A stretch of 64,000 bases of DNA, from positions 3,968,001 to 4,032,000 of the forward strand of contig NC_089432.1 in the NCBI RefSeq assembly GCF_026210795.1, read 5' to 3'. A program made the translations under genes and the position numbers. The notes beneath the pieces are model-generated. The model ran no database searches and was not told the origin of the DNA. It was given only the letters and a program-made list of their open reading frames with translations. The stretch is from Rhizophagus irregularis. Taxonomy: Eukaryota. Positions 11,101 through 57,225 of this stretch are shown piece after piece (position 1 is the first letter of the stretch; the number at the start of each line of letters is the position of its first letter).

Positions 11101-11674
11101 TTTTTAAATATATATCATAGATATTTTATTATTTACAAGCAATTATAAATTATCGAACAGCCATCTGCACAAATTGTCCCTTGTTAAAAAATGCAGCACG
11201 AAGAGCATTTGCTTCAATTTGGTCTGCACGTCATCATCCTATTTATCGTTTGATAGAAATTGCAGATGAAGAACAATTGATGCGACTCCATCCAACTATA
11301 TATACGTGATCTTGTGGAAAAAAATAGTGTAATATCACGATCAGGTTTAATTAGCCAACATCAGGGATTAGATGCAATTTTAGAAGAGGTAAACAAAGCC
11401 TTAAAAACACTTATACCACCTGTTTCACAGCAGCGTCACTGGGAAATTGCTGCACGAAACTGCAAAAAGTTTCTCCAGGTATATCTATATATGCTATAAA
11501 TAAAATGCTAAAAATCTGTCAATAAAATAAAAAACTACTTTTGATACCTATATTTGTATTTTATGATTTATGCATTATTTATATTTTATATAATAAATGG
11601 TTGATTTTTTTTTAATTTTTCAACTACAAAAGTTACGTAACAATTTCTTTAAAGTAATTGGATATAATGATGTT
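8136..11674 (+). pseudogene. 5' part of a disrupted multi-exon gene (possibly transposase-derived, DUF6589-like); insertion target of the giant element
   Basis: ORF pieces 8136-8879, 9270-9725, 9870-10103 separated by in-frame stops; VTCDGVPY and LIPEQLHEEMN motifs once the MITE is removed; last exon ..LRNNFFKVIGYNDV ends at the TSD. Confidence 0.6.
10104..10638. mobile_element. Fold-back MITE with CAC-type termini (CMC/CACTA-like)
   Basis: TIRs CACAGGTTGAAAAGTGAAAAATCAGGCA / TGCCTGATTTTTCACTTTTCGACCTGTG; almost the whole element is an inverted repeat; ATA TSD at 10101-10103 and 10639-10641; removal restores LVLI-PEQLHEEMN. Confidence 0.85.
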
Positions 11675-11723
11675 AGTGGGATACCACATGCAATATAAAT
11701 TATATTGCATGTGGTATCCCACT
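11675..11723. repeat. Left terminal 49-bp palindrome (hairpin)
   Basis: AGTGGGATACCACATGCAATATAA-A-TTATATTGCATGTGGTATCCCACT, perfect 24-bp arms. Confidence 0.95.
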
Positions 11724-11739
11724 TATCCTAGATTATAGT

Positions 11740-11928
11740 ATCACATGTAATCTAAATACCACATATAATCTAAATACCGCATATGATCTAATTAACACAT
11801 ATAATCTGAATACCTCATATGATCTAAATATCACATATAATCTGAATACCACATATGATCTAAATAATGTAATCTAATTACCACATATGATCTAAATGAT
11901 GTGGTCTAAATACTACATATAATCTAAC
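11740..11928 (+). repeat. Subterminal tandem array of ~18-bp units (consensus ACCACATATAATCTAAAT)
   Basis: About 10 imperfect copies read directly; more copies ~12019-12066; mirrored at ~56360-56690. Confidence 0.9.
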
Positions 11929-14385
11929 ATTTTATTATTTCTTATATCGCTTTTACATTCTAGCTATATCTTTAAGCCTTTCTTGATATTTGTATTTTTG
12001 TGCTAATATACTTTTTATTACCACAATATAATCTAATTACCACACACATATAATCTAAATACCACGCTATTCTTCTTGTTTCTAAGTCATTTATTTGTTA
12101 AATTATACAATGGAGTTCTTGACCTTCTGTAGTTATTTGGATACCTGGTTTATATCGAGTACTGTGCCTCCTGCACCTGATTGGGTGCTGGATTTTATAT
12201 TGGAGTACTTACCTTTGCGCCTATTTGGTTGCCTTTCTAGATGTTGAAAAAAAGTGACGGGTGGCGCAGTAAATTTGCATTTAATTTCGGCTGACACTAT
12301 GCTATAATTCCGGCTGATCTTTTGGGCATGTGATTTGAGGATCCAGCCTGGCGCCATGGAACTATCGTGGAACTGGCAGGGAACTGTCATGGAACTGGTG
12401 AAGAACTGGCAGGAAGCTAGAGTGGTTCTATTAATTCACCAGTTTCAGATCACTTATATTGCCAGCTTGGATGCCAAGTTCTTATGCCCAAAGATCTGGT
12501 CAAAATTGTGAAATAGTGTTGGCCGAAATTAAGCGAATCTATACTGCGCCTTACTGCGCCATAGTCACGTGATACTGTTCCGGTGACAGAACACCCTCAC
12601 ATAGTTACGGGCTAGTGACGGGGATGTTCTGGGAAAGTTTCTGGAACCCAATATATATGCATCTGTGCCACATATTTTTTGTATCCATATATTTCCGAAA
12701 TCTTCCTAACACTCTCGAGCTCCAGTCTGGTGGACAGTTGGTTAGTAGAGAATTGGAGGTACAATATGTATTATCTTGGCCTGACCCATTTGATTACCAA
12801 AAAGTGCGCCATCATGCAACCTAATTATTGTCAGTACATGTATGCCTATTTCATGTCCAAAGTTGAAGATGCGATATGTATTATTGTGGCTGGCCCATCT
12901 ATACCATACCCGAATACATATCTAGAAAGATGAAGGCTTCTGCCAATATTTATATAATAGATTACGCAGTTACCTTCACTTTTAGATGTATATCCACTTG
13001 CCTTTCTTTTTCGATTCTTTATCTAAGTTTGCTATCGCTTCTTTTTTTCGCGTATTTGTCTATCCTAGATGTCATATATGTCCGAGCACATACTAGTGTT
13101 AGGGTAGCCTTCTGCCAATATTTTATATAATGATTACGCAGAAGGCTACCCTATAAAGAATGTATTTATTTGTGTCTCCGAAGTGTCCAAGAGGGGCCAG
13201 CCAACTTCGTATCTCTTTTTGGTATACCTCTATATTACGCGGAGGCTATACCATATCTGAGTACATATCTAGGAAGATGGGGGCTTCTTCCAATATTTTA
13301 TATAATAATTCCGAAGTTATCCCATCTAAAAGTATATACCCGTTTCCCTTTTATTTACGATTTGCTTACTGGGTTGCTATACGCCTCTTTTTACATCCTA
13401 TTAACAATGCTAAGGTGAAGGCTTCTGCCAATTTTTATATAATAGATTACGCAGAAGCCTTCACTTTTAGATATATATCCGGTTGCCTTTCTTTTTCGAT
13501 TCGTTTAATAAGTTCACTATCGTTTCTTTTTGCATCCACCGAAAAAAATAAATTAAACATTTCCGAATTTTATAAAGTAATATAAACATTTTCGAACTAA
13601 CACCATGCATACACCAACTAGTTTCGACCAAACCGATCACTCTGGCCCTCTCGTTTACTTCAACGGCGCCAGTCCCGATGAATATTTAAGTGATTCAAGC
13701 AGTTGTACTGATAATAAATCCGACTTGGGGTCAGATGATTATAATGACAATGAGTCTAATTATGAGTCGAATAATGAAGAAGCTACCGGTACCTCAACCG
13801 ACATTACCACGACTCCATCATTTCAGTACTCTTTAAGGCAGGAAAAGTTTAATGATAAATTTTCTTCTAAGGATTTGCTAAATGCCATTCGGAGGATTTT
13901 CTCATCACCACCTAGAGATATGTCAGATGAAAAAGGCTCATTGGAAGATCTCCCAATCTATTCATTCCTCTTTCCGAATGAAAAAGGGTCTAGTTTATAT
14001 AACGCTTACGATCGGGGTGAAGTGGAAAATAAATTGGTTATCAAAATCGACCAAGATGGTGATCATGCCCCCAAATTTTCCGTTGCAGATGACATTTCAG
14101 AAGTATATGGTTTACCCGGGATTCATGAATGTATTAATAGACAAAAGCCTTTAAGAGCTGTGATTGATATCGATGCGTCGCAAAAAGATATGGAAACAGC
14201 TGATGTCAAGGGGCAAGAAGTGTTCATTCGAATCTGTTGCTCTTTCATAAGAGCTTTGTACCGAATTCTTGACTGTGGTTGGGAAGACATTCTCAAAGGG
14301 TTAATAGTTACTACATCATCAGATTCTAGCAAATGTAGTTATCATATCTTATATGCACCGGCTCTCCTTATCGATCACCAAGAGC

Positions 14386-17300
14386 TAAAGCTCCGCATGA
14401 GCCAGCTTGAGCCGAGCTAAGGTCTGGCTTGGGCTTGGCTCGAAAAAATGTACTGAGCCAAGCCGAGCCGAGCCACAAATTCTTATGGCTCAGCTCAATA
14501 TGAGCCGAGCTATAATAATTCTTAGCTCGAAACAAATGAGCTGAGCCGAGCTTCAATAAATTTTGGCTCGAGCCAAGCTGAGCTCGAGCTACTATTTGTT
14601 TATAATTTGTATTTATAATTGACATAATTATGTTATTTATGTAGAATATTTTTTATTTATTTTTTATTTATTTATTTATTCAATTTTTATTTATTTAATT
14701 TAAAATCTAATTTAATTAATAAATTATAATTACCGGCACACATTTTTTCAACATTTATTTGTTAATTTCACTTCCGTCTGACCCTTTCCGTTATTCAGAC
14801 TACTATTATGAGCAATTATCAAGTCTACTATTTTACTTTATCATTAAGTTTTACCCTCCAACCTTTCATACATAATTACCGCTTCAGAATGTCCAACAAG
14901 CAACCGAAACCTAGTTATCCCGGGTTCATCTAAAGAGTCCGGCAACCTAAAGAAAATAGTAGAAACGTTAGTACTTTTCTTCTATATATTAAAAAAAAAT
15001 TACTCCCCAATTCCCGCTAACATATACTTGCACACATTCCAAATCCGGACCTTCCAAATCTAAAAAAAAGAATCAAAATGTTAGTAACGTTTCGTTAAAT
15101 TATAAGAAAAAAATTATTTCGATTACCTTCAAACATTAGAAGCCGGTCCGTCCCTACAAAAAAAGAAAGGTAAAGAACGTTAATAACGTTCTTGTAGTTC
15201 TTGTATTGAAAAACCCTCCCTTTCCTCACATTACCTCAAGAAGCTGTGTGCCGAAAGATTCGTTCCTACTTCCTACAAAAAAGAAAAGAACAGAACGTTA
15301 GTTAACGTTCTTATATTAAAAGAATTATTAATATAATATCTCCCCCTGTAACTTACCATTTTATGGAATTCCAAGTCCAGGAAAAAAATAAAAATAAAAT
15401 AAAAAATTTAACGGTATAATAAGATTGTTTGAACGAAAAAAAAATTTTTTTAAAAAAAAAATAAAAATGAATAACGGTTTAAAATAAAGAAACCGTTTAA
15501 CGAAAAAGGAAAAAAAATAAACCCGTTTTTTTTTAATAATAAACCTAAAAAATATACAAAGCGCTACAAATTTAATGTATAAAGTTGAAGGAAGGAAAAA
15601 AAAATTAAGATTATCGATCGGTAAATCGGATCGATAAGTCACATGTAAAGATGTACCGTAATATTAATTTTGACTGTGAAACTGAAAAGTAACTGTGCTA
15701 AACTAATTTTGGTAGCTAAACTAATTTTAGCTAAGCCAATTTTATTAATTTTCCGTGTCTTAATTATTTAAAAGTAGTTATCGTCTGTATGGAAAAAAAA
15801 AATTCGAGTTGATAATTTCAGTTATCATCCATGCAAAATAATCCAACTTAAGTCATTCTTTTACGGGTTCTTTTTTGACGGCTTTCTCTTAAGATAAAAA
15901 GATTTATATATCCGAATAATGTCCAACCCTTCTTCACCTATTCCCGTTCCCACTCCTATTGTTGAACTTGAAGCGAATACTAATTCTTCTTCAAGCAGCA
16001 AAAGATCCCTTGTTTATCAATTTTTTACTTATAAGTCTCCAAAATATTATTGCAACTATTGTCCTAAGAGTTTTTCAAACAAATCAACTTCTACGTTATG
16101 GCGTCATGTAAATAAACACCACCCAAAAATTGTTGCTGAAACTCAAAAACAAGAGGAAAAAATCGGTGAAATGGATAAGTTCGTAATTTCTGATCAAAAA
16201 GAAAATGTAAGTTTAATATTTATTTTAATACCATATTAAAGATCCTTATTATTAATATATCAATATAATTATATCATTTTTTTAGTTTAGCCAAAAAGGA
16301 TATAGAAAAAGATTGATTCGTTGGGTAGTTAATAATGATCAACCGTTTAATGTGACCGAAAATAGGGAATTTCGGGACATGATGACATTTATTCGACCAG
16401 GTATGCACATTCCCTCTGCTGATACTATACGACGAGATTTAACTGAAAACTTTAAAACTTCAAAAGATGTATTTAGACAACAACTGCAGGTTAATAACTA
16501 ATGTTTATATGTAATGATTTTATATTATATGGGTATTAAATCAATCCAAATAAAAACAATAGGAAGCACCCGGTCGCCTATCTTTCACAGTGGATGCTTG
16601 GACCAGCAAGAATCAAATTCCATTTCTTGGGATAAGTGTTCACTGGATAAATGACAAATGGGAATTAAAATGTACTACATTGGATTTTTGTATTTTATCA
16701 GGATCCCATACTGGAGCTAATTTATCACAAAGATTTTTAGAAGTCCTTCAAGAGTTTGGTATAACAACAAAAGTAAATGTTTAATTGTTTATTTACAATT
16801 TATATTTTTTTTCATAATTAACTAATAATTGTTTATTCTTTATTGTATATAGATTTTAGCAATTGGATGTGATAATGCTTCCAACATGGACGTGATGCTA
16901 GAAAACATTTCGCAGTCTTTAAAATTACAAAATATAATATTTGATCCAAATAATCATCGCGTCCGATGCCTTGCACATGTTATAAATTTAGGCGCAAAAA
17001 AATTAATAGATCATCTTTATGTGACTAATAAAATATCATATGAAGATGAAAATACCTTTGAAGTATCCGAAGATAATGATGATAATTTGAAAGATGCTAT
17101 ATATAAGGTAATAAATATTATTGCAAAAATACCAATTTTATAATTGCTAATTGTTTAATTTATTAAATTTAAAGCTTCGCAAGGTTATAGTAAAAATTAG
17201 AGCATCTCCACAGCGCCGAGAAAAACTTAAGCAACAATGTATTGCTGCTAATATTAAACCACTTGAACTTATCCCGGATGTGTCAACGCGATGGAATTCG

Positions 17301-18880
17301 ACTGATGACATGATAACACGTGCATTGGAATTAAAACAAGTAATATTAGTTTTATTATTTAAATTTTTTTAAAAAATTATTAAATTTCTAATTAATAATT
17401 AATTATACAGCCTCTTCATAATACCGCATCAGCTGATAAAGATTTAAGAAAGTATATACTTTCAGAAGAGGAATGGAATTGTATTTTAGAAGTACATGAG
17501 ATATTGCAGGTTAGTTATTTATTGATTAATAATATACACGAAAAATAATAAAAAAAATATTTTCAAGAAATTAAATCTTTTTTTATCTTTTTATTTACAG
17601 TGTTTTAAAAAGAGTACTAATTTTAGCACTGGACAGCAATATCCAACGTTATCGTATAGTGTTCCTATATACAACTATTTGCTAGATAAGCTTGAAGACG
17701 AGTATGAAAAAAAGGAAAGTGAAAAAGGCGAAGAGAATGAAGTTGTAGTAGCATTAAATGAATCAATCGAAAAAATAAAACAATATTATGCATTTACAGG
17801 TGCATTAGTTTATACAGTAGCAACAGGCAAGTTTATCATTATCATTATGTCTAATTTTATGATATTTAAATATTAAATTTATTTCTTATAATTTATTACT
17901 AAATAGTGATGGATCCTCGCCTTAAACTTCAATATTATAGGGATAATAAATGGGAGGAATCCTTTATTCAAGAAGCCAAAAAACAAGTTGTTGAATTATG
18001 GAAGTCAACGTATAAAGTAAATAGTGCAGATAATGAAGAATCACATGATGATGATGATGAAATTTTCGGTCATATATTTAAGAAACGGAAATTAAATAAT
18101 GATGAATTAAGTATATACTTAGATGAAAAAATAATTCCCGGAAAAACAGATATTCTTGCATGGTGGAAGGTATATAAATAATATTATTTATTATATTATT
18201 ATTTTATATTATTAATGTTATTAAATTAATTTTTATAGGCGCACGAAGTGGAGTACCCGAATTTGTCTAAAATGGCGCGTGATTACTTATCTATTCCAGG
18301 TTAATATATATATATATATCAAAATAGTAAATTACCGATCAATAAACTATTATTAATTATTTTATTTATATAATTTATTATTTTTATAGCCACTAGTGCA
18401 CCTGTAGAGCGAATTTTCTCAGGTGGCACCGATTTAGTTGTTCAAAAACGTTGTAGTCTTAAAGATGAATCAATTCAAAAAGTAATGTGTCTTAAAGGAT
18501 GGTGGAAATCGGGTTTTGGTGGAATAACTATTGTAAATGATTAATATAAAAGTAAAATTATATCTATTGTTAGTTTGATTATTAAATGTTAAATTTTAAA
18601 TAATAAATAATAAAATAATAAAATAAACAATATTTTATATCAAATTTTAGTAATTTAAAATCGAGCCAGCTCGAGCTATTTAAGCCAAGCTTATTATTGG
18701 CTCGAGCTTTTTTGAACTGATTTATTACCGGCTTGAGCTTTTTGAGCTGAGCCTATTACCGGCTTGAGCTCTTTTCAAGCTGGCTCGTGAGCTACGAGCC
18801 AATTTAATTATGGCTCAGTTCGGCTCAGCTTGAAAAGCTTGAGCCAGCTCACAAGCCAGCTCGGCTCATGCGGAGCTTTA
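14386..18880 (+). mobile_element. hAT DNA transposon nested in the primase-helicase gene
   Basis: TIRs TAAAGCTCCGCATGAGCC / GGCTCATGCGGAGCTTTA; 8-bp TSD CCAAGAGC (14378-14385, 18881-18888); subterminal GAGCC/GAGCT repeats. Confidence 0.95.
15919..18544 (+). CDS. Multi-exon hAT transposase with BED zinc finger
   Basis: CNYC..LWRHVNKHH, DAWTS, CDNASN, RCLAHVINL, DVSTRWNST, DPRLK, WWK..YPNLSKMARDYLSIP, ATSAPVERIFS; GT-AG introns between ORF pieces. Confidence 0.9.
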
Positions 18881-21800
18881 CCAAGAGCTTAAATCATTCA
18901 CCGAATTAGTATATACCTTAACTGGGGAAAAATTTGGCAAGTTTATTGATCAGAATCTATCTGGTCATAATTTTAACCTTCGCCTTATTGGTTCGGCAAA
19001 AAAAGGTCACGTGAAACGAATTCTTCAGTTTTCACTAGATAATGGGTGGAATGAACTCGATCACGTTAGAGTCCAACCACCTACTAACTTAGGCCTCGAA
19101 GTAAGACCCCGGCTACTTAGTGAAGAAAAAAATAACAACCCACTAAGGATAATTGTAAGTCAGGATGTATTACAAAAATGCGCGAACTTAGTTTTGCAAA
19201 AGCATTTTAACTATCTTAGGAATTGGACTATCGAAGAAAAGGATTCACAATACTTCGTATATTTTAACCGGAAAGCTTCACTAGAATGTCCACTATGTAA
19301 ACATATACATGACAAGGATCAGCGGTGGTTCGGACATGTATCTGCTAGTGGTACATTTATTGTGAAATGTTTTCGGCAAAATAGTGATGAACCTGGGGAA
19401 GTTTTTGAATGCGACCCATCTATTGCGGAAAAAATTCAGCAAAAAAATAAAAATATATCTTCGGCGCCTAGCAAGATAAAAGGCTTAGGTTTTCCTAAAG
19501 CCTTCTTAAAATTCCCATCTTGGGTTAAGTATAATGAGCCCCTTTCAGCGACAGAAATATATGACGAGAGATATGTAAGACCATTACCGGATGAAGGTGA
19601 TATCTATGTAGGATCGCCTTGGGAGACGGGAAAAACATATGTTCTCGAGCATCTTACTATATCTGACGATGTGAATTTGCTAGTATTATCTACGCGCCAC
19701 TCTTACTCGAATGCCGTCACTACAAGACTCAATCTCAAATCATATTGCGATATCGATAGTAATATAAATCTACCTGATCATAAGAGGGTAGTATGTCAGA
19801 TAGAAAGTTTACACCGTATTACTAATAATTGCAAATGTAATAAAAAATGTAAATGTTCTCCAAGCCAATATGATTTATGGCTTGATGAAATAGTATCTAT
19901 AATTGCTCAGGCACAAGGTCATTTGGCGGGTCAATCAATAGAGAAACTATATAAATTAATCCAAGAGGCTAGGCGTATTATCGTCATGGATAATGATCTT
20001 ACTGATCTAAATATCGAATGGATTAAGGCCCTTCGCAAGGATAAACTATTCTCAGTTATCCACAATACTTATCAACCACAGGAAGGGAAAACATTCCGCC
20101 TAGCCTCTAATAAAGAAACTGTGTTAGCCGAACTTTGGGATTGGGCTAGGAGAATATCTTCACTACCTTCTGATAAACGAACAAGTGCATCACTCATCTG
20201 TCATCTCAGAAAGGATGTGCAAGGGATCGTTCGTGCTCTCAAGACCGATTTTCCGGAATTGAGGATCAAAGAATATCATGGTAAATCTGATCCAGAAGAA
20301 AAGGCTAACGACTTCAGTAACGTAGAAGAATCATGGAGCAATGTTGATCTAGGTGCGTATACAAGTACTTTAAAAATAGGAGTATCTTGCACTAATCCCA
20401 AGTTCGAACGGGCGTTCTGCATCTTTAACAGTTATATAGAAACGAACGCTGGAACGAATCAGATGCTATTCCACATGCGGTGCATTAAAGATTATATATG
20501 CCATATCGAACAAAGATCTTCTAACGTCCCCATTACAGAAGATGGGTTATTTCGATGGTTGTTGAATGCTAAACGTGAATGCCTCCCCCGAGAACTCCAG
20601 AATAGAGGAATATTCCCAGATGTAGATTCTATTATCCGGAATAAGGACGTACCAACTGTTCGATTATGGGTGGCATTCATGTTGGAAAAATTCCGTTCCC
20701 GAAGATTATTTGGTTGGAGGATGGTTGATTTTCTCCGAAATGCAGGTATGGTAATTTCTATCATAGAACTTATGCCTAAACCTAAAGATAATACGATATC
20801 ATTATCCCAGACAGTAAGGGTGAGTTCATCTATCATTAAAGCAGAAGAAATCTCAGATATATCAAATGCCCGTATTCTTGATCATGAGATAGCTGAGGTT
20901 TTGGAAAATAAGCCGAAGAAGACTTTAGAGGAAATGCAATCTTTAGACCGGCATCATATTGTAGAATGTTATGAGATTCCGCCTGAATCATTGACCGAAG
21001 AATTCATATCGAAGTATGGGAATTATAATCATATGAAATGGTTTAGAGCTTATAGACAGTTACGGGACGCTGGCACTGATAATGAAACGGCTGTTGAGGC
21101 TATTACCCGTAAAGATTACAGAGAGGATAGACTCGCAACCGTGACCCGAGCTGAGAGACATAGTATCTGCTTGGAGTTGCTAAGAAATTGTACACCCGCT
21201 AAAGACGTTGACGATAGAGCACGATATAAAGCTGATGATGTTAGAACGCGCATGAACTCTCCTAAATCGATATTATATCTCCAGGATTTAGTACCCAAAA
21301 TGGCTCGAGTATTTGATAATACAGATGCATCGCGCAGAGCTAAAAAATCGGGATTGAAAACAGATCGGGCAAAACTTGGTTTATTAAATGCATCACTTTA
21401 CGCAACTTATGGATTAAAATTTAAGGCTATAGATAAGAATTGTAGACATTACCACCTAGTAGGTTCATTTGATAGTAAAGATGCTCCTAGATTACCTTCA
21501 TATCAAACGGGCGAAGAAATTTATTGGGTAAATGGTGAAGATACTCGGTATGGGTATAGTAAACTCCCACCCGATGAATTGATATTAGATAATTTTACTA
21601 GCTCTAGCAAAGTGGATAATACGCAAAATACAGAAGATATTCAGGACTTATTTGATATATGCTAATACCATTCGATTACGTATCAGGTAAGTGAAGGCTT
21701 CTGCCATTTTTATATAATATAATTCCGCAGAAGCCTTCATTTTTCGGCATATATTATTAAAAAAATATCTCTAACTTTGCGTCACTCTGGCCAGGATATA

Positions 21801-21913
21801 TAGTCACATATTTTGAGACGTGGGCTTCTACCAAAATTTTATATAATAATCGACTAATGAATGATATATTTTTTTTGCTTACTTTCCTAGTGCTCTGAAT
21901 TTCGAGTTAACCC

Positions 21914-22465: not shown

Positions 22466-22969
22466 ATGGACATATCAGGCCAATTGACAGAATACGAGCC
22501 CGCTCACGAAAAAATCTATAACCCCAAATCTAATCGCATGATAGTTATAAATGGGCCAGTGTATCGTAAATTATTATGTGGTGGTTATATCCATTGGAGA
22601 GAAGAAAGGCTTTTGATTCCGCCTTTACATGAATTACCAATATTAAGAAGATATCTTTCTTTCATTTCATATCGTATCTGGAACATTGTATCGGAAAGAA
22701 GTTTACTAGCAGTGGTTAACGAAAAAATAAGCCTATTGCAGATTTTACTCAAAGCTAATTGGCATGATTTTACTTTATGTCAACTATTAAAATTATGCTG
22801 GGAGCGTGAAGAGACGAAAGCTTGGAGGAGTAATGTACTCATGAAATTCCTCCATCATCTGAATTTAGCTCCTTTAAAGTATAGACCGGGAGCTTTATGC
22901 GATGCATTTATCAAGACAGATGTTTTAGGGCCGGAACATATATTAACTCTAGCACGAACGTTTTACTAA
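22466..22969 (+). CDS. Hypothetical protein with an N-terminal NPxS/TxRxI..GxxYxxL motif (2-cysteine-adaptor-like, known from large DNA viruses)
   Basis: IYNPKSNRMIVINGPVYRKL; intronless 167-aa ORF. Confidence 0.5.
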   Translation: MDISGQLTEYEPAHEKIYNPKSNRMIVINGPVYRKLLCGGYIHWREERLLIPPLHELPILRRYLSFISYRIWNIVSERSLLAVVNEKISLLQILLKANWHDFTLCQLLKLCWEREETKAWRSNVLMKFLHHLNLAPLKYRPGALCDAFIKTDVLGPEHILTLARTFY

Positions 22970-23294
22970 ATATTACTATAACATTTTGGTCTTAGATCAT
23001 TCATAGCCTTGGAATGGGGGTTCCATGACTATGTATTTTTTTTCGCATATCCTATCTACCCGCAATTTTCAAATGTTTGCAGAGAAAACCCGGCCATAGT
23101 GGGTGGATTCACGTAGTGAACACTCAGCATAAGCTATATTATTATTTTTCGCTCCTCCAATCCTCCGATAGCTTTCACCGACCATGAGGTAGTGAAATGG
23201 GGGAATATTTTTTTCGAATTGAACTTTATCCCACTTAATATAATCTGAATACCACAGATTATCTAACTACTACATATAATCTACATACCACATA

Positions 23295-24443
23295 ATGTCT
23301 GCAATTACAACCAAGTTCGTTACAGACCACCAGCTTACCAATGAGATGAGTATCGAAGAGCTCAGTCAGTATGCGCCAGAAATGCGTGACCTCTTGGGAG
23401 ACGATAGAGAGAAAAGGCGCCAGGCCCGTAATCGTCTTCAAAAAGGGTATAAATTTAGCAAAGAACAGGCATTTGCATTGATTCCTGACCAGAGAAATGG
23501 GCGGTATATAAGTCAAGTACCGATCCTAGAGGAATTAGGATTAGCGCCTTCAGAAGCTGAAGTTAATATAAGCCTAGTATCTGAGAATACCCCAGAAGGG
23601 GAGACTATTAAAGAAATAGCTCAGCGCATTGTTCGGGATAATCTTAGTGAAAGAAATGTAAAAACGATATCAAGAACCTTAGTCGAAACGGCCTCTGATC
23701 CTATCATTGCCTCATCACGACTCTCCAGGCTTCAAAGAGAATTGCGGAAGCTTAACACCTCGGAGGCGATAATCTCTGCCACCAAGATTTCGGAGATAAC
23801 CAGAGCATCTAATAAAATCCAACAGAAGCGTACTGAGCAACGTAAAAATGAAGGACTCCATTATCCAGACCACTTCTCGTTAGAATCGGTTAAGGAACGG
23901 CTAGATTTATATGTTGTGTCTAACACACCCGATAAACAGGCCCTAGCTGATGTAATGATTATGCTCTGTATCCGCCCTACTGAAATTAAAAACTTGCGCA
24001 TAGCAAATGGGGGCGTAACGGGATACGCAAAAAACCGAGGCCAACAGGATGTTCCTCGGGTGTTCAGATCGCTGGAAAAAAATGAGGAGCGAGCAAGGCA
24101 ATTGCTTACATGGATTCAGGAAGCAATTTCTTCCAGACAGTTAAGAGATCCAGGAAAACCTGGATCGACATACTTAAGTTCGTTTCTGAAAAAAGAAGAA
24201 TATATTCCTAAACCTTATGAGCCATTACTCCCTAGTTCCTTGCGCAAATTAGGGGCGGTATTTGCTTTGGTAGTCCATGGGCCTAAAAATCCGTCAAAAG
24301 CCAATACTTATGCCAGTGAAGCCCTTCGACATTCGCCGAATAACCATGCTTCTCCATCTGATAGATATACTATAGTTAATTTCAGAAGGAGGGGGCAACC
24401 TTATGATCAAGCAAAACCATTCTGGATTTCTGATGAAAACTAA
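23295..24443 (+). CDS. Tyrosine recombinase / telomere resolvase (protelomerase)-like protein
   Basis: Candidate catalytic residues in YR order: MLCIRPTEI (R), GYAKNRG (K), PSSLRKLGAVFA (R), EALRH (H), SDRY (Y); intact 382-aa ORF. Confidence 0.65.
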   Translation: MSAITTKFVTDHQLTNEMSIEELSQYAPEMRDLLGDDREKRRQARNRLQKGYKFSKEQAFALIPDQRNGRYISQVPILEELGLAPSEAEVNISLVSENTPEGETIKEIAQRIVRDNLSERNVKTISRTLVETASDPIIASSRLSRLQRELRKLNTSEAIISATKISEITRASNKIQQKRTEQRKNEGLHYPDHFSLESVKERLDLYVVSNTPDKQALADVMIMLCIRPTEIKNLRIANGGVTGYAKNRGQQDVPRVFRSLEKNEERARQLLTWIQEAISSRQLRDPGKPGSTYLSSFLKKEEYIPKPYEPLLPSSLRKLGAVFALVVHGPKNPSKANTYASEALRHSPNNHASPSDRYTIVNFRRRGQPYDQAKPFWISDEN

Positions 24444-25437: not shown

Positions 25438-25474
25438 GGCTAATTAGCTATCCGATAAATGCCAGTCCAGAGCG

Positions 25475-25975
25475 ATGATAGAGGTTTATTTTTTATATTT
25501 GGATATTATATATGCCATAATAAAAATGGTATTCGTGAATTGTGTAGTCGAAGAAAATATTCCTATTGAGGCATCAATTGATACGAGCGCCAATGTAAAT
25601 TGCATTAGCCAAAAACATATTGGTGAATTAGGAATTACATATCACAGTGAAAGCAATCGTATTGAGACTCCGGATGCATCCTATTCTACATTAGGAAAGG
25701 TTGATCTGCATATCGGCTTTAATGATAGCAAGAAACATAAAAGCACACCCGTTGAATTCATAGTTCTTGGACTGGAGTGGTCGGGACCTGATTTAATTTT
25801 AGGAGGACCTTGGTTTCAAGAAAATGGTGCAACTTTGGATATATGCAACTCAAATCTATTATTTGACAATAATTTTGCGATCCCATTCAAAGAAGTAGAC
25901 TATATTTCGACATTATCTGATAGTCAAATCCGAGCTATGACGGATTTTCCCAGTCCAACCTATAGTCCGGAGTGA
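25475..25975 (+). CDS. Retropepsin-like aspartyl protease (second copy; likely start at MVFVN)
   Basis: ASIDTSANVNCIS and DLILGGPWF motifs. Confidence 0.75.
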   Translation: MIEVYFLYLDIIYAIIKMVFVNCVVEENIPIEASIDTSANVNCISQKHIGELGITYHSESNRIETPDASYSTLGKVDLHIGFNDSKKHKSTPVEFIVLGLEWSGPDLILGGPWFQENGATLDICNSNLLFDNNFAIPFKEVDYISTLSDSQIRAMTDFPSPTYSPE

Positions 25976-26037
25976 TCGTGTATTACTAGCCTTATTTTTT
26001 TCTGATCGAAAGGTATTCTAACTATATAAATAAAGCA

Positions 26038-26463
26038 ATGCATACAGACAATTTACTTGATCTTCTTCCGCCGGAGATAATATCATTTATTCTAAAGTAT
26101 CTTCCAGAACAGGAACTAAAGAATTCTCGCAGTATAAATAATATATGGGAAAGAGAGGCGAATCTTGAATGGCACAAAAGGATGGAATTTTTATTTGGGA
26201 GAATAGTTCAAGGCAATTATACAGTAAAGGAATATTATTCGAAACTGAAAGAGTGTAATTTAAGCAAAGACTATCCAGAATGGCTTTTTAAAAATCTATT
26301 CATCAGAGGATTATCACCTGAGAATAAATTTAAAGTTCGTTTGGATGGGCTATTACTACTTTCGTTAGATGAGATAGTGGATGGACAATTAGTACTTTCG
26401 TTAGATGAGATAGTGAAAAGGCTTAGTTCGGAGCAGGCCGAAGGTGCTTTGCATGATCATTAA
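26038..26463 (+). CDS. F-box protein fused to a Gag capsid-like (MHR-region) segment
   Basis: [23 protein letters not shown] (F-box) followed by [30 protein letters not shown], which aligns with the element's Gag. Confidence 0.75.
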
Positions 26464-26510
26464 GCTTAGAGAATTTATTTTTTCGATTAAAGATACAGCA
26501 TATATTATTC

Positions 26511-27593
26511 ATGGCATATTCAAGTATTTTTAATATACCAGAACTATTAGAGCAGGTTCTATATTTCCTAGCAGTAAATAAGACATTGTATCCTGCCCTA
26601 TTTGTTTGCCGGCTTTGGTACAGATGCGGTGGTCCTATTTTATGGAGACGCATTGAGCTAAAGGGGAACGAAGTAGACGATAGATCTCGATTGGAAAGAT
26701 TTTTTAAAATAGTACGTGGAGGAGGAAGACCAGTTTATAGCTCAAAACTAACTCATCTCAAAATATCGGACTATCATTCACTTTCAAATAAAAAAATCAA
26801 AGGCATTATGCATACTTTCCAAAATATAATACATTTAGATTTTGGAGGGAGTATGAAGCCTGAGTCTATTGGTAAAGTTCTAAAGCTAATAGCAGAATCA
26901 TACCCGAATTTGAAGTATCTTAATATATCCGCTTTATGCAGTGGATTTGGAAATGATAAAGGCCTATGTGCAATCGCGAATTCATGTTATAAAATAGAAT
27001 GTCTAAATATTTCTAGACGTACAGAGTTTTCTGAAACATCAATTTGTAATGTTATTCGTTCTTGCCCAAGGCTCCAGCAACTCGACCTTAGCTTTTGTCA
27101 TATTACCGATATAACTATCAAAGAAATTACTGGTTCATGTGTTAATTTAAAGTACCTCAATTTGGAAGGGTGTAATAATATTAGCAAAGAAGCCGTAGAT
27201 CAGCTCATTTCACTTAATCCAAATATTCATGTCGAGAATTTTGTGCCGATTCGGGTACCTCCCCAAAATAATGGAGCTTTAGATGTAATCCATGGACTTG
27301 CAAGGCAACTGGGAATACCACATGATGAGCCAAGAGATGTTGCATCCTTAAATAATTTTATCAATGACGAATTATCAAGGAGATTGAGTGAACGCTGTAT
27401 TCTAGCTAGAACATCGCTCCGGAGTGGTGGTCGGTTATATAACACCCGGCATAGTGTTAATAATAATCAGAATTCGGTCATATCTCAGATACACCGGCAA
27501 CCTAACAGACGATCGCCAAGGATTAATTTCGGTAGAATACTAGCCGATCAATTAGAATGGTGGTACTCTACCGATCTAACTAATCTGGAGTAG
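26511..27593 (+). CDS. F-box/LRR (RNI-like) protein carrying a Gag-derived segment
   Basis: [17 protein letters not shown]; LRRs ([27 protein letters not shown]); [33 protein letters not shown]. Confidence 0.8.
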
Positions 27594-28411: not shown

Positions 28412-28987
28412 TCACCAGCTCGGAAGAATTTGCTGAGCCTCAATACATGTACTCATGTGCGACAAAAATAGGCGATCACTAGACAGGGTTCGTGTAACAT
28501 TAATTTTGCATATACATTCGAAAAGAAAACATATTAACCTTTATTCTTTATTTTTCCCAAACAAACATGAGAAAAATATGAAAGAGCGTCTAGTTGCAAC
28601 ACAGGACCAGCTCTAAAAGTAAATATTAACGTCAAAAGCATATGTTATGAAGGGCTGAGGGACTCACATTTTCGAGATCGCCAGGCGTAAGACCAACTAT
28701 GCGTCTCTCCGGTAGATCTCCATGTGAAAAGGTTTGAAAATTCTGTTTACATGTGCTTTCATAGAACTCTTGGCATCAGACGACAATACTAATTACGCCT
28801 CATACCTCCTTAACTTCGGCTTGGCGCTCTTTTTCCCAGCAAGATATAAAGCATGTAGGGGTATGTGGAAGTTCAGCCAACTTTCCGCAAAAATTTACCT
28901 GTAAGTGCTTCGCTAAGGTATGTATATACCAGAAGTTATGTATGTGTGGGAATGAAAATCTCACTATGGGCTTTGTATTTAGGAAAG

Positions 28988-29347
28988 ATGCCTTCTATTC
29001 GTCTTAACTGCTTTCTTCGTGGTGGAACCGTTAATAACATTTTCGATGTAGAAATTGATAATAATTTGTCTGTTGGTGCTCTGAAAGATCAGATCAGAAA
29101 TGTCCGGCAAGACTTACGTCAAGAAAACTTCGATCTATATGAAGTTAATTTTTTTCAGCCCAATTTTTCCATAGTCTCTTCTGTAAACAGTATTGCGATT
29201 AGACAAGGAGTGTTTATGGTTCCACATAGAGAAATTTCTAATTATTTCTCTACCTTGCGCATCAATACTCTCATAGAAAGCCCACCTTACTTTCAAGAAA
29301 ACGGTGAAAGGGGTGTTATTCACGTCCTCATATACCCTCAAGATTAA
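28988..29347 (+). CDS. Crinkler (CRN) N-terminal ubiquitin-like domain protein
   Basis: LNCFLRG..IFDVEI...SVGALKDQI...LYEV...IHVLI. Confidence 0.65.
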   Translation: MPSIRLNCFLRGGTVNNIFDVEIDNNLSVGALKDQIRNVRQDLRQENFDLYEVNFFQPNFSIVSSVNSIAIRQGVFMVPHREISNYFSTLRINTLIESPPYFQENGERGVIHVLIYPQD

Positions 29348-39621: not shown

Positions 39622-41122
<1,501 letters not shown>

Positions 41123-41146: not shown

Positions 41147-42817
<1,671 letters not shown>

Positions 42818-42866
42818 TCTCAAGGTAGGATTATTATGATGGTACTATAAATTAGGATGAAATACC

Positions 42867-48652: not shown

Positions 48653-51600
48653 TTATCTTTTTTTGTCATCCTGTAACTTTGATAACGTTCGATAGCGTGT
48701 GATTTCTAGACCAACCACTTTGTACCATGTGTTTCGGAAACCTGCTAGTAGCTTACACTCATCCAAATAATATGATGTTAAATATTGTTCTAAGGACATT
48801 GCTCGCTTCTTAGTAACTAATTTATACATACTTTCTCTATACCCTATATCAACCTCGGAAATTTCTTTAAGCAATGATGAAAGTTTTAAGCGGATAGATT
48901 CTTCTTGCTTATCTAGCACATTGAGGAAGGATTGGTAATAATCATTGTTAGTCAGGTGTTCTCCCTTGTCGGCATAAGTAGTATCAAATAATTTTTTCGC
49001 GTAAATGCGTGCCCCTTCCCATAAATGAGAAATGATGGTTTTATCTTTTTTCGGACCATCACGTAGGTTTTTGATATACCCCCTAATCCATTTTTCAGCC
49101 GATTTCTGCGCTAAGGTATCTCTTATTTTTGATACCTCATCCCCATCCATTTCGTCTTCTTCCTCTTCATCTTCGTCCAGGTCGTCTTCATCCACTCTAC
49201 TGTCATCCGCTTTATTTTCACCCACTTTATTACCATCTTTTAACTTTTTTAAGGCTTCCAGCACAATTTCAGATGATGGCTGGTGTCTATCATCATAGTT
49301 TATAAATCGCGCACAGAGCCCGACAACACTTTTCAGATAATAGTTAATATCGATCTTTTTATCAAGATGTCTTGCCACTTCTGGGTACTCCATTTTGTCA
49401 CCTACCTTCTGTGATGAATCATTCTCAACTACAACATATTCAAACCGCTCGCCTGGCTCTGGGATTTCATAAAGATAAGCCTTGGGTGTTAGACCCTTTT
49501 TTATGAGCCGTTTGGCGTCCGCTTCTTCACGGGTATGTCTATCCCGCATTCGTGAAATGAAGCGCTGTACACTCTTGTTATTTTTATCGGGCCTCCACAC
49601 AGCAGTTTTTATTATTTCATTAAGATTTGTCTGCGAAATATCCTTTACAGTCTCTTTGAGCACGTCCTCTACAACCTGATGCAAGGTACGTGTATTGTTT
49701 ACCCTCGTAGACTCTTCCATAATACGTTTTCCTATTTTGCGGAAAATGCCAGACTGACCCCGTTTTACAGTCTCAATTCCCCGAATGAAAAGCTCTTTAT
49801 TAAAATTTGGCTCACTCTCATGTGGAATGCTGTAGTATTTTTTCTTTCCAGTAAATACTACCGGAAATAAAACTTCCTCATATGCCATTTTAAGATACGA
49901 CGATCCATTATCTTTTTTAAAAAAGTCATTAACTTCGTCGCGGAGTTTCTCCATCTCTTCCATAGAGATTTTTACCATTCTAGACCAATATTCTTCTTTC
50001 GAGATCCCACCATTACCGCTGTCATATGCCTCATCGCATTCTTGAAAGTACCTTTCTGGAGGAACTAGATACAATGAATCAGTATCACCATATTTTATCT
50101 GAAAATCCCTACTTTTAACGAAATTTGCGACAAGTTTGATATTTCTCTGTCCAGCTGATGTGATGCCCCCAGCCAGTGCTCGCAAGAAGAAGGGAGATTT
50201 ACTATCCCCAGCGGTGCCATAAAATGTATTCATGTACACCTTAAGAGCATTTTGTTTCGCATCTAAGCAAGAATAAACAAAACAAACTGAATCATATTCT
50301 GTCATGAATTCATGCTTTTCTTTATTAATAAAATGGTATAGATTTTTGTTAAGGCTGGCACGTTTTTTCTCCCCCGCTTTTGCTAAAATGTGCTCAATTG
50401 CTTCTGGTAGTGACAAATCTTTACCCATTAAACCTATTACCAGTTCCATATCTTCCTTTTTTTCTTTCACAGGGGCAAGGCGTTCCTTTATCTCATTCCG
50501 TTTGATAGATAAATATTCCAATATAGTAACGTAGAGACCCTTTTCTTCAGGAGTGTTATTATGCCTTATAGACCATGCGAGACAATCCTGATTATTGAAT
50601 TTAAAACTAATTTCGTGGAGTTTTTTACCACTTTGTTCAGCACGCTCTTAAGATAAAATGATTTTATCAGGCGAGAGGTTGTATGTCATGATAAGGCTTG
50701 GATATAAAGATCTGAAGTCTAAGCCAGTTACAGGACGTTTATTTTCGAGCCCCTTTATTGGTGGGAAGACGTAGGCACCCGGGAATGATTCTGTTTCCGT
50801 TCGTTCTGAAATTGTACTGGTTAAAATCCCTTCCCGCCATGCACTAGCACTTAAAAGATTGCTCACTTTCATTCCTATTGCAAAATAATGCGCATCAAAT
50901 AACGATATAAATGCTATGCTCGCAACCTCCCTGTACTCATTAATTACATTGTGCTTAATCATTAACCGCTGGCAACTAAGAGCGTCAATGATACAATATT
51001 CGGCTATTTCGCGCATTTGTTCAGCCGTTGTGGCATCAGCCTCTTTTAGTGCATTTCTGTAATACTTGAACATGCGGTTGAAAGGCATATCCAATTTACT
51101 TTCGAGCCCACATTCGTTTAGGTAGAATGCTAAACTACTCTTTTCGGCCTTAGAATAAAATTTCATAAAGCAAGGTCGGACATCGATAGCTACGCATCCT
51201 GGGATTTTGAGATGCTTTGAATGAAATGGTATATCATTAACCTTTATTGCGTTATATTGGTATTGCCATTTTGTAATTTTTTCGAGGCTTGAATACTTTA
51301 ATGACATTTGATTGAACACCCATTCGAGAACCCCTAATTTTTTCGCCTTCTCCACAATAAATCTCCAATCATATTGTGAATCATTAAAACCTATGTGTAT
51401 ATCTGGAGCTAAAAGCTTCCAACATAGTGCAAAAGCCTTTAGTAAATTAGTCTGGGATCCACATACGATTGTAATCCATCGCGGATCTGGCGCTGTTTCA
51501 ATATCGACAAGACAGATTTGTTTTAACGGTTCGGGATCATCTTTCCAATGAACTGTCATACAAATCATAAATACGTTAGATTCATCGCTCTGCGCAGTAG

Positions 51601-52410
51601 GGAATTTACCTAAACCAAGCGAACTATATGTCTCTATATCCCATGTGAGAACAAGAGTTCGATCCCGTGAAAGGGTCGAGGAGAATAATGGATTATTATA
51701 ATCGTCCTCACTTGTTGGATTGTAATTATTCACAGAAACTTGGAAGAGATAAGTACCCCTTGAATATATTCGTGGAAATAATTACTTAACGTTGCCCAAC
51801 TTGAAAGAGGTAATCTTTTTTCACGGGCTACTTTGCGGTAATAATATATTGGGGTTAGATCATCAGAAGCTGTACAGATACTGACTTCACGAACTGCCTT
51901 TAACATATTATACCGGTCAAATTGATTCCAAGTAATAACACGTATATATGATTTTTTCTCTGTATAATATCCTTGAAGTGGGAAAGCACTAATATTCTCG
52001 ATCCCAAATTTTGATGTACCTTTGAGAGTATTGGATAATATATTTACTAATCTGGTCTTAAACGTAGATAGGGACATCTCTTCAGGTACTTCGACATCAA
52101 AGAAAAGCTTAATGCCTGTAATTTTTACGACTGCTTTTTGTCCATTAATCAAAGTACCAGTAATACGCAAAATATAGGAGGAGACACCATTTACATATTC
52201 GGAGGTATCATCACTAACTTCAGTAGGCATGAAATGTATGGGTTGCTTGTCGGATAGGCTTTGTTGGAGTATAGCAGTCATCCCATTATCATATTCTGCT
52301 ACAATCTCATTACGTGATAGAACACCGGCTAAGGGGCCAGTGTCATCGTAGCGGAGGGCTGGGGCGGTTCCGGAGCGATCGGTTTGGTCGAAACTAGTTG
52401 GTGTATGCAT
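48653..52410 (-). pseudogene. polB: Family B DNA polymerase, RNA-primed type, asfarvirus/NCLDV-like (~1250 aa; one frameshift, one nonsense)
   Basis: ExoI WDIETYS, ExoII GFNDSQYDW, ExoIII YCIIDA, GLDFRSLYPSLIMTYNLSPD, KQNALKVYMNTFYG, YGDTDSL, KKKYY; frameshift in the G-run ~51757-51760; in-frame TAA at 50650-50648. Confidence 0.93.
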
Positions 52411-52879
52411 GGTGTTAGTTCGAAAATGTTTATATTACTTTATAAAATTCGGAAATGTTTAATTTATTTTTTTCGGTGGATGCAAAAAGAAATGATAGTG
52501 AACTTATTAAATGAATCGAAAAAGAAAGGCAACCGGATATATATCTAAAAGTGAAGGCTTCTGCGTAATCTATTATATAAAAATTGGCAGAAGCCTTCAC
52601 CTTAGCATTGTTAATAGGATGTAAAAAGAGGCGTATAGCAACCCAGTAAGCAAATCGTAAATAAAAGGGAAACGGGTATATACTTTTAGATGGGGGTAAC
52701 TTCGGAATTATTATATAAAATATTGGAAGAAGCCCCCATCTTCCTAGATATGTACTCAGATATGGTATAGCCTCCACGTAATATAGAGGTATACCAAAAA
52801 GAGATACGAAGTTGGCTGGCCCCTCTTGGACACTTCGGAGACACAAATAAATACATTCTTTATAGGGTAGCCTTCTGCG

Positions 52880-55283
52880 TAGGGTTGGTAAAATAACCGT
52901 TAGTTATGAATTTGGTTAATTAACCGGTTAATTAACGGTTAGTTAACGGTTAATTAACCCATAAATAACCTGTATATATAATTTTAAGGAAGTTAAAATA
53001 AATTTATAATTTATTAAATATTATAAAATTTTAATATATTTTATTTATTCTTCATCATCTAAATTAATAACATTTGCTTCAAATCCAAATATACTATCAT
53101 TATCAGAACTATTATTATTATCATCTTCTTTATTTTCATTATCAGAACTATTATTACTATCTTCTTCATTTTCATTAAAATTACTAATCTGTTTCTTTTT
53201 TTGTATTTTTACAAGTCTATTACACATTCGAAGATTTCCATAAATATAAACTAATTTTTTAACACGTTCATTTTTCAATCTATTTCGAATTTTATTATGA
53301 ATAAAACCAAAAGTAGAAAAATTTCTTTCTGCAGCTGCAGAAGATGTAGGAATTGAGAGAATTTTAATAGCCAGTTGTTGAAGTTTACTAGTTGGCCATG
53401 ATTGCCACCATAAAGATGAATTAAGAATATTAGCAGATTTCCAAATAATTTCATTATCATAAGGTGAATTTTTATTACGAAAATTTACCAATTCAGCAAA
53501 TAATTCTACTGCTTCTTCCTGATTAAATCTTTTATTTACAAATGTTGTAAATTCTACATAACCAATAGATTCAACTTCATCATTTTTACTTTTTTCCAAA
53601 AATTGTGGATCTAACATATAAGCTGTTATCATAATAGGATGATAAGTATATTCCCATCGCTTTGCAATAAGTTCTTGAAGTTTATCAGAAAAATTACAAT
53701 CTATTTGATTAATTTGATTCATTACTTCTTTGAAATATGAATAAACATTTGAAAGAATTGAAATATCTGATTCAAATAACTTTAATGCTGAAACCATTGG
53801 TTCCATAATTTTTGTTATTATATCTAAATCTTCCCAAAACTCATCTGATAAAATATGAGCTCTTAAAGTTAAATCCATATTTTGACGAATTCTTATATCC
53901 ATTAAAGCCTGTTCAAGTGCTGTTCTTGAATTTTGAAGTGATTGAAAACAAGCAAGATGTATTCCCCATCTTGTAAGTGCTGGTAAAACCAATGCAATTT
54001 CTTTAGAATAATTTTCTTTTTGAATACGTTTCAATTTAGCTGTTGCCTGTACATGTGCCTTAAAATAATTGACCAACTTTTTTGCATTTTCAACAACAGA
54101 TTTAATTTGATCAATCTTTAAAATATCACTAATTAAAAGATTCATTACATGAGAATTACATCCTAAACAAACAATACTTGGATAACTATCTTCAATAATT
54201 CGCCAAGCTGCTTTCATTACACTAGCTGTATCTGTAATAACTGCTAAAAATTTATTAATACCAACAATTTCCATTTGTTTAATAATTTCATCTGCAACCC
54301 ATTTAGCTGTATGAGATTCTTCACCAGAATAAATAGCATCAAAGAATAATGGTTTTGGAGTACAAATAACAAAATTTTGAACTGATTCTCGATTAATATT
54401 AGACCAACCATCTGAAACCATTGTAAGAGATTTAGCTTGTAAAATTTGTTCATTACATTCAGCTTTAACTTCATCAAAAACATCATCAAGTAATTCATCA
54501 GCAAGTTTTCTTCGATTAGGTAATTTGAATGCTGGACGTAATTGTTGAAAAAACTGAATAACATAATTATTTTCAAGAAAAGAAAAAGGAACTCCAGCAG
54601 CAAATAATGCTTGAGCTAGTAAAATTTCAAGAGTATCTTGTTCTTCTTCACTCATACGATCAACAAAATTCTCAATTGTTGTATTTTTTAAATGCTTTTT
54701 TGATGTTTTTACTGTAGGAATAAAAGTAGAAGTAGTAGCATCAGAAGTTTCTAATAGTTCAGGAATTTGTTGTTTCTTTGTTTTTGCACTTTCTGGAGCT
54801 CTAGGACAACTATCATTAAGATGAACTTGCATTCTTTTAGCTGTACCTTGTTCAAAAACTTTAGAACAATAATTACAACGTACAGAAGGATGTGTTTTTT
54901 TTTTTTTTCTTAGACCTACTACTTTCTTCATTACTTTCTGCTTCAGTAATTATTGTCCAATGTTTCCAAACAGTTCCCTTTTTTTTTACCATGATAATGA
55001 ACAATAAATTTGCAAAAAAAAGTGTTTTTTTAAAAAAAATTTATCTTAAAAAAAAGATCATGCAATATGTAGATCATAGATTTAATCAATATTTATATTA
55101 ATTAATATTTAATTGTGTAACAAAATAATGGATTATCATTTAATCACATGATTTAAATTCTGCATTTTGATTGGCTAATTATAAATAACGGTTAATTAAC
55201 CATTTTAAATCAATCATAACTAACAAAATTAACGGTTAATTAACCATGGTTAATTAACCGTGGTTAATTAACCCCCATCCCTA
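52880..55283 (-). mobile_element. hAT DNA transposon nested in the right TIR
   Basis: Ends TAGGGTTGG.. / ..CCATCCCTA; 8-bp TSD CTTCTGCG (52872-52879, 55284-55291); GGTTAATTAACC subterminal palindromes; empty site present in the left TIR at ~13137-13144. Confidence 0.95.
53045..54992 (-). CDS. Intronless hAT transposase (BED finger, DUF659-like core, dimerisation domain); frameshift in an A14 run near the 5' end
   Basis: MVKKKGTVWKHW.. then VRCNYC..MQVHL, SDGWSN, ITDTASVM, CNSHVMNL, TRW, LDP, PTSSAAAERNFS. Confidence 0.9.
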
Positions 55284-56703
55284 CTTCTGCGTAATCATTA
55301 TATAAAATATTGGCAGAAGGCTACCCTAACACTAGTATGTGCTCGGGCATATATGACATCTAGGATAGACAAATACGCGAAAAAAAGAAGCGATAGCAAA
55401 CTTAGATGGAGAATCGAAAAAGAAAGGCAAGTGGATATACATCTAAAAGTGAAGGTAACTGCGTAATCTATTATATAAATATTGGCAGAAGCCTTCATCT
55501 TTCTAGATATGTACTCGGGTATGGTATAGATGGGCCAGCCACAATAATACATATCGCATCTTCAACTTCGGACATGAAATAGGCATACATGTACTGACAA
55601 TAATTAGGTTGCATGATGGCGCACTTTTTGGTAATCAAATGGGTCAGGCCAAGATAATACATATTGTACCTCCAATTCTCTACTAACCAACTGTCCACCA
55701 GACTGGAGCTCGAGAGTGTTAGGAAGATTTCGGAAATATATGGATACAAAAAATATGTGGCACAGATGCATATATATTGGGTTCCAGAAACTTTCCCAGA
55801 ACATCCCCGTCACTAGCCCGTAACTATGTGAGGGTGTTCTGTCACCGGAACAGTATCACGTGACTATGGCGCAGTAAGGCGCAGTATAGATTCGCTTAAT
55901 TTCGGCCAACACTATTCCACAATTTTGACCAGATCTTTGGGCATGTAACTTGGCATCCAAGCTGGCAATATAAGTGATCTGAAACTGGTGAATTAATAGA
56001 ACCACTCTAGCTTCCTGCCAGTTCCTCACCAGTTCCATGACAGTTCCCTGCCAGTTCCACGATAGTTCCATGGCGCCAGGCTGGATCCTCAAATCACATG
56101 CCCAAAAGATCAGCCGGAATTATAGCATAGTGTCAGCCGAAATTAAATGCAAATTTACTGCGCCACCCGTCACTTTTTTTCAACATCTAGAAAGGCAACC
56201 AAATAGGCGCAAAGGTAAGTACTCCAATATAGAATCCAGCACCCAATCAGGCGCAGGAGGCACAGTACTCGATATAAACCAGGTATCCAAATAACTACAG
56301 AAGGTCAAGAACTCCATTGTATAATTTAACAAATAAATGACTTAGAAACAAGAAGAATAGCGTGGTATTTAGATTATATGTGTGTGGTAATTAGATTATA
56401 TTGTGGTAATAAAAAGTATATTAGCACAAAAATACGAATATCAAGAAAGGCTTAAAGATATAGCTAGAATGTAAAAGCGATATAAGAAATAATAAAATGT
56501 TAGATTATATGTAGTATTTAGACCACATCATTTAGATCATATGTGGTAATTAGATTACATTATTTAGATCATATGTGGTATTCAGATTATATGTGATATT
56601 TAGATCATATGAGGTATTCAGATTATATGTGTTAATTAGATCATATGCGGTATTTAGATTATATGTGGTATTTAGATTACATGTGATACTATAATCTAGG
56701 ATA

Positions 56704-56752
56704 AGTGGGATACCACATGCAATATAATTTATATTGCATGTGGTATCCCACT
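56704..56752. repeat. Right terminal 49-bp palindrome (hairpin)
   Basis: AGTGGGATACCACATGCAATATAA-T-TTATATTGCATGTGGTATCCCACT. Confidence 0.95.
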
Positions 56753-57225
56753 ATGTTCAAGCAAATTCTCCAAGAACTCATTCTGAATCAATTACAGAAT
56801 GTCAAAGATTTCAGGTTTATTTAAGAAAGCTTAATTTTCTTAATCCAATGGAGACAAAAACAGATTTTAAAAGTCTAGGTGGAGAGAATAAATTGAGTGA
56901 CCAGTTGAAAAATTTTAGTAATTTGGTAAAAAAGGCACGACAAGAATATATTATTGAAGTGTTTTACAAAAAAAGTTCAGTTCTCTCATTTTGGCCTATT
57001 CCAATAACTCAACAAGAAGCAATGATGCAGGCAGATGAATCCAACATAACATGAATAGAGATTTTGCGTAAAGTAGAATCTCTTTTAGAACAAATGAGTG
57101 AAAGTATTCGCAAGCAGTACCATGGAATAGGATCTAAAAAGAAAAGTGAATTGCTAACCATATTACAAGAGGTACGAAATTTGCAGAGTGTAGATAATGA
57201 ATTAAATGATATAGATGTAGTTTAG
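56753..57225 (+). pseudogene. 3' remainder of the gene interrupted at 11674
   Basis: QANSPRTHSESITECQRF.. continues in frame from ..GYNDV once the element and one TSD are removed; in-frame TGA at 57052. Confidence 0.7.

Follow-up and report, generated by a model that had tools for sequence, protein, structure and literature searches.

Closest described systems

A linear element that relies on an RNA-primed polymerase is unable to complete the copying of its ends, and hairpin ends together with a telomere resolvase solve this problem; two reports describe this solution for N15 and Borrelia (PMC13236599, PMC13221069). The closest described system is the phaeovirus provirus (Ectocarpus EVEc; EsV-1, FsV-158): it, too, is integrated in a eukaryotic genome and encodes a telomere resolvase, and reads fold back at its N15-like palindrome (PMC13236599). 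Here we describe a 45-kb element in a 64,000-nucleotide stretch of the Rhizophagus irregularis genome (NC_089432.1, positions 3,968,001-4,032,000; below, the window), in which terminal palindromes occur together with a resolvase-like gene (23295-24443). Structural modelling and sequence comparison suggest that the product of this gene is probably a telomere resolvase, which would bind the palindrome arms, cut across the centre and seal the ends as hairpins; we hold the same role to be slightly more secure for the family as a whole.

The element resembles the TelA (Agrobacterium), TelK and TelN (phiKO2, N15) and ResT (Borrelia) systems in fold, in the five active-site residues and in the palindromic site, but has a eukaryotic host, and the palindromic sites stand at its two ends, in the integrated state and alongside a DDE integrase. 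PF02399, found in the element helicase, is also present in N15 RepA and in the replicase of the linear Shewanella plasmid pSH190041-1, each paired with a resolvase; direct BLAST similarity is weak. In the phaeovirus, the palindrome is internal and a separate tyrosine recombinase integrates via a circle at CC dinucleotides, whereas the present element has terminal palindromes, a 5-bp duplication, an rve gene and a length of 45 kb, and no capsid gene was found in it. Polintons/Mavericks share with it an rve integrase, an A32-like ATPase, long terminal inverted repeats and a target duplication; in contrast to them, it has an RNA-primed family B DNA polymerase (PolB), a UL9-type helicase and a resolvase, and no capsid or cysteine protease was found. 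The PolB pieces match PF00136, PF03104 and cellular-type polymerase models, and no protein-primed polymerase family is among the matches; by the polymerase test the element is therefore not a Polinton.

Other related sequences are known from publications: fragmentary Glomus and Rhizophagus A32 genes near Maverick-Polintons (bioRxiv 10.64898/2026.06.19.733378), Maverick families (PMC11075540), asfarvirus-like polB in R. irregularis, with 15-33 copies per genome in variable places and without capsid (PMC10640383), scattered polB copies in a further report (PMC7017919), a polinton-like integrase beside nucleocytovirus-like polB in Mycodnaviridae (PMC13533422), Chlamydomonas provirus/punuivirus integrations with terminal inverted repeats and 6-bp duplications (bioRxiv 2024.09.03.611062), and Glomhoppers, which are Crypton-type DUF3504 elements (PMC13465315). 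The available portions of the accounts of scattered polB copies, Mycodnaviridae and punuiviruses mention neither a resolvase nor terminal palindromes. Our literature search, whose scope did not include subscription journals, repeat databases and supplements (these may list the element as a Maverick), found no paper on a resolvase in a fungal integrating element and nothing combining protelomerase, Polinton and fungi.

Fold and active site of the resolvase-like protein

The gene is a single uninterrupted frame with an ATG start. Its predicted product has the tyrosine-recombinase/topoisomerase-IB catalytic fold and is closest to TelA, TelK and ResT; the structural comparison with telomere resolvases and Cre-like recombinases proposed in the initial annotation thus returned the expected fold in the model, with resolvases as the best match. 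Protelomerases rank above all integrases by three methods. The alignment with TelA (predicted model) covers 266 residues, including the helical domain and the linker N-terminal to the catalytic domain, and the active-site Arg, Lys, Arg, His and Tyr are in register with those of telomere resolvases (TelA residues after PMC3558466). The PF00589 domain was not found in the protein by Pfam, and integrases rank below resolvases as structural matches.

The motif order R..K..(S)LR..LRH..Y, read initially from the single sequence, proved to be real and conserved. Non-gap counts in the best 120 of 356 homologues show R227 in 84/101, K246 in 86/86, R317 in 92/109, H346 in 100/107 and Y358, the tyrosine of the DRY motif, in 101/104; all five residues are retained in 51 of the 72 homologues that span every position, and their conservation extends down to about 35% identity. 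The named organisms among these best 120 are Glomeromycota fungi throughout. A representative search yielded 400 relatives at E <=0.001, with identity reaching about 33% among the 150 listed, and the ten distant relatives looked up had no informative name. Eight distant relatives with 33-38% identity (P0189, P0190, P0196, P0219, P0225, P0229, P0262, P0267) come from metagenome and read assemblies and lack the first 100 residues, while the active site is kept in those displayed that reach the C-terminal end; on these sequences, the family may extend beyond Glomeromycota.

Stops or frameshifts were present in 11 of the 16 full-length relatives tested, and the ratio of nonsynonymous to synonymous substitution rates (dN/dS) was taken on the remaining five loci with open frames, giving 0.14-0.24. 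In the only two loci computable for both, the catalytic half had lower values than the whole gene (0.14 vs 0.24; 0.17 vs 0.21). An intact frame amid broken core genes had also been put forward as an argument: the frame is indeed open, and the PolB, primase-helicase and rve genes are broken, but with 11 of 16 relatives disrupted the intactness of one copy says little.

Terminal palindromes and sister ends

The palindromic ends noted initially are perfect 49-bp palindromes (24+1+24) at both termini, the longest perfect palindromes within the 64 kb, with a fold z of -10. Sister ends were collected from contigs of four runs aligned to the left end and read by eye (22 of 29 loose-end rows). In two of them, the loose letters alone hold perfect palindromes of 22 and 24 bp, with arms unlike those of the window copy, and further loose ends, of 13 letters, point to an identical even centre; among these rows, one loose end is not compatible with a full palindrome. 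Records with a different flank match the 51 bases of the window copy without a gap, which makes a second odd-centred insertion likely. Among 72 metagenome loci fetched by protein, L067 opens with a perfect 32-bp palindrome, the first and last five bases of which are those of the window copy. The centre TAATTA is common to all even ends, the window copy being one base longer. In known resolvases, the two cuts lie 6 bp from each other around a centre of this kind, for which TelA has strict sequence requirements (PMC3558466); the self-complementary central 6 bp are present in the sister ends, whereas the window copy is odd-centred. Arms that change under perfect symmetry would be expected of a hairpin cycle, since a hairpin preserves a single arm, from which its partner is rebuilt.

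Half-sites linking the gene to the ends

The subterminal array consists of nine units, each of which matches the 18 axis-proximal bases of the palindrome arm at 12-15/18, and a 57-nt stretch of the repeats that run into the start codon of the resolvase-like gene is 86% like this array. A half-site matrix built from the subterminal array alone scores the palindrome arm at 15.4 bits. Away from the termini, it scores highest at 23249 (19.1) and 23267 (15.4), two adjacent positions in register upstream of the gene, and a third match (8.6) overlaps the start codon; apart from the top two, the best match in the window reaches 10.9. The shuffled interior gave a mean of 0.82 matches of >=12 bits. The repeats at 23227-23302 are likely a self-regulation site, to judge from their position.

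Similar upstream sequence is kept by related genes (41 loci listed). The L067 subfamily has ATAACCTA in place of the core ATAATCTA, both at the element end and upstream of 5/5 genes tested, including that of L065, which is 99.8% identical to the L067 gene. Nine 8-mers upstream of the gene in the window copy occur also at the end of that copy, and none occur at the L067 end; two of the five L067-subfamily genes share one 8-mer with the end of the window copy.

Besides these half-sites, an inverted half-site beside the palindrome (11729-11754) gives a second small hairpin in the predicted fold. A second repeated motif of the terminal repeats (12928-13531) recurs right after the helicase gene (21689-21850) and is a possible promoter or origin.

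Weighing the explanations

Several observations weigh against a telomere resolvase. No PF16684 match was obtained in Pfam scans for the protein, 35 aligned members or 15 distant relatives, the hhalign probability of the resolvase match is just 44%, and identity to TelA is 12-16%. The position three before R317 is Ser, against Tyr363 in TelA and Lys or His in other resolvases (across homologues, Ser 92, Arg 10 and Lys 4 of 108; register uncertain). The acidic residue at His+4, invariant in a 10-sequence resolvase alignment, is Asn in 106/107 homologues, and His+3 is Asp in 85/107 homologues but Asn in the window copy, the register being uncertain for both; TelA without that Asp shifts towards Cre-like recombination, according to PMC13221069. 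The extra central base of the window palindrome sits poorly with the strictness of TelA. One of 100 shuffles exceeded 19.1 bits (maximum 21.1), so that the upstream array is supported by adjacency and the 57-nt match rather than by one score, and the covariation of end and upstream sequence concerns two subfamilies, with one terminus (L067) looking rearranged. Because the PF16684 score was not reached, the protein is filed as a separate resolvase-like subfamily, which would probably act like TelA, TelN and ResT.

The same half-sites could serve a protelomerase-derived Cre-like recombinase, which would recombine the two terminal palindromes, or the junctions of a dimer, and thereby excise, invert or resolve the element without hairpins. 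We consider this unlikely, as protelomerases outrank all integrases in the three methods and as recombination alone would leave the end replication of a non-protein-primed PolB unsolved; moreover, the spacer of a recombinase site is as a rule asymmetric (Cre/Flp; PMC13221069), whereas the symmetry of the sister ends continues across the centre. The half-site repeats over the gene's own start would also suit a site-specific binding regulator or end-binding accessory, the repeats then being origin, promoter or integrase-loading sites, with rve or enzymes of the host dealing with the hairpins or palindromes in the manner of hairpin-type DDE chemistry. Recombinase-fold regulators do exist (MrpR, SroF), and the UL9-type helicase is equally possible as the repeat binder; nevertheless, conservation of all five catalytic positions to about 35% identity and the stronger purifying selection on the catalytic half in two loci render a regulator quite improbable. 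Least of all do we expect a passenger, be it a Crypton- or Starship-type recombinase or a topoisomerase-IB-like relaxase without link to the ends, given the fixed place of the gene in the element gene order and the terminal repeats ahead of its start; general Pfam scans, made without a direct profile comparison, gave no DUF3504 or DUF3435 match. The telomere resolution proposed initially is, in contrast, supported by the fold ranking in the model, the active-site residues, the palindromic ends and the recurrence of the arm both in the subterminal 18-bp array and before the gene.

Proposed replication-integration cycle

With a telomere resolvase, a four-step cycle can be drawn, all reactions of which are inferred and which as a whole falls somewhat short of an even chance. 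Both terminal palindromes of an integrated copy would be cut, releasing a linear, hairpin-capped element. The primase-helicase and the RNA-primed PolB would then copy round the hairpins to give a dimer, the junctions of which are again full palindromes and would be resolved by the same resolvase-like enzyme. Finally, the rve integrase would nick 24 nt in from each hairpin tip, directly behind the terminal CT, and join the 3' ends to target positions staggered by 5 bp. Repair after integration would unfold the hairpins, which is the proposed reason for the whole palindrome at both integrated ends. The tandem 18-bp repeats could serve for loading, and those that overlap the start codon for self-repression.

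More tentatively still, a Glomeromycota family of ~45-kb capsid-less self-copying elements may alternate between an N15-like hairpin linear plasmid, equipped with its own protelomerase, UL9-type primase-helicase and RNA-primed PolB, and a chromosomal form inserted by a retroviral-type integrase that nicks hairpins; the 49-bp palindrome would be telomere, excision site and integration end at once. Such a cycle is not known to have been described for any transposon or virus, and the family could be the source of the scattered viral-like polB genes.

Gene content and decay of the element

The element (11675-56752) is an island of ~37% G+C within a 25-30% background. The rve integrase and the target duplication noted initially are both present, as a PF00665 gene and as ATGTT at both ends. 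Coordinates are given in Table 1.

Table 1. Features of the 45-kb element (window positions)
Feature	Position	Strand	Remarks
5-bp target duplication ATGTT, left copy	11670..11674	+	
Left terminal inverted repeat, ~1.97 kb	11675..13645	+	Covers first codons common to primase-helicase and PolB genes
Left terminal palindrome, 24-bp arms and one central base	11675..11723		Likely unfolded hairpin; putative resolvase site
Array of nine 18-bp repeats	11738..11927	+	Each 12-15/18 identical to palindrome arm; mirrored at 56500-56689
Primase-helicase gene (UL9/PF02399, CyRepA1-like)	13605..21665	+	Split by hAT relic ~14420-18840; unsplit in L035
Small conserved gene directly 5' of recombinase gene	22466..22969	+	Present in 6/72 related loci
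Copy of end of terminal palindrome, then ~three 18-bp half-site repeats, into start codon	23227..23302	+	
Protelomerase-like tyrosine-recombinase gene, 382 aa	23295..24443	+	Predicted active site R227, K246, (S314), R317, H346, Y358
A32-like packaging ATPase	40340..41122	-	PF04665, E 1.2e-6
rve (DDE) integrase	41147..42748	-	PF00665, E 1.2e-9; in-frame stop near 5' end
PolB, RNA-primed kind (PF00136, PF03104)	48653..52434	-	Three pieces
Right terminal inverted repeat	52370..56752	-	Broken by hAT transposon (~52882-55283)
Right terminal palindrome	56704..56752		Left palindrome sequence inverted
5-bp target duplication ATGTT, right copy	56753..56757	+	

The primase-helicase and PolB genes (13605 and 52410 regions) have their promoter and initial codons inside the inverted repeats and therefore begin with an identical peptide. 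The Pfam scan of the element (35 ORFs) gave rve, A32, PolB and a PF02399 helicase; this helicase also matches CyRepA1 below cut-off (E 1.3e-41), with plasmid matches too; the primase part of the gene is presumed by us from DxD and SxH-type motifs. No jelly-roll capsid or cysteine protease was matched at profile level by the 35 ORFs in Pfam or by 18 proteins in PHROGs. Two related loci have ~50% identity: L035 keeps the order primase-helicase, small gene, resolvase-like gene, and L056 carries the resolvase-like gene together with A32 and rve, making the coexistence of resolvase-like gene and rve a family trait. A cysteine-rich ORF (34795-35700) is conserved (31%) ahead of A32-rve in L056 and is therefore probably a core gene. 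The window copy is decayed and may no longer run the proposed cycle.

Cargo (28859-30892 and 25990-27593) comprises two ORFs with Crinkler N-terminal domains, a restriction-endonuclease-like piece, and genes of the F-box and F-box/LRR kinds; L002, L004 and L043 likewise have F-box or LRR neighbours. On the plus strand, 42861-46208 holds a coiled-coil ORF, a stretch across a frameshift that we take to be retrotransposon Gag-like, and an aspartyl-protease-like ORF (weak Pfam match), with no reverse transcriptase; by sequence, a Gag-protease may have been captured here by an element that has a packaging ATPase but in which no jelly-roll capsid was found. A second protease-like ORF (25448-25975) is common to related loci. 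Two hAT transposons lie inside the element, at ~14420-18840 and at 53045-54949 (minus strand), the right one having a long transposase ORF and, within its ends, palindromes of 15 bp. Just beyond the left end, a 530-bp inverted-repeat element (10104-10638; 183-bp arms, 15-nt spacer), with 11-bp subrepeats and a 32-bp palindrome at 10563, is likely a miniature inverted-repeat transposable element (MITE).

Implications

If the assignment is true, the element would provide a eukaryotic (fungal) hairpin telomere resolvase, the target, loading array and operator of which are readable from sequence, and its new specificity would be useful for producing closed linear DNA. It would represent a third end-replication route for large integrating elements, besides protein priming and the circle, and would account for the whole palindromes at integrated ends. 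For the mycorrhizal genomes, it would suggest what the dispersed polB copies, and some of the unclassified repeats, are; and excision, which would leave the host chromosome cut with hairpin-capped ends, would be a possible source of rearrangement.
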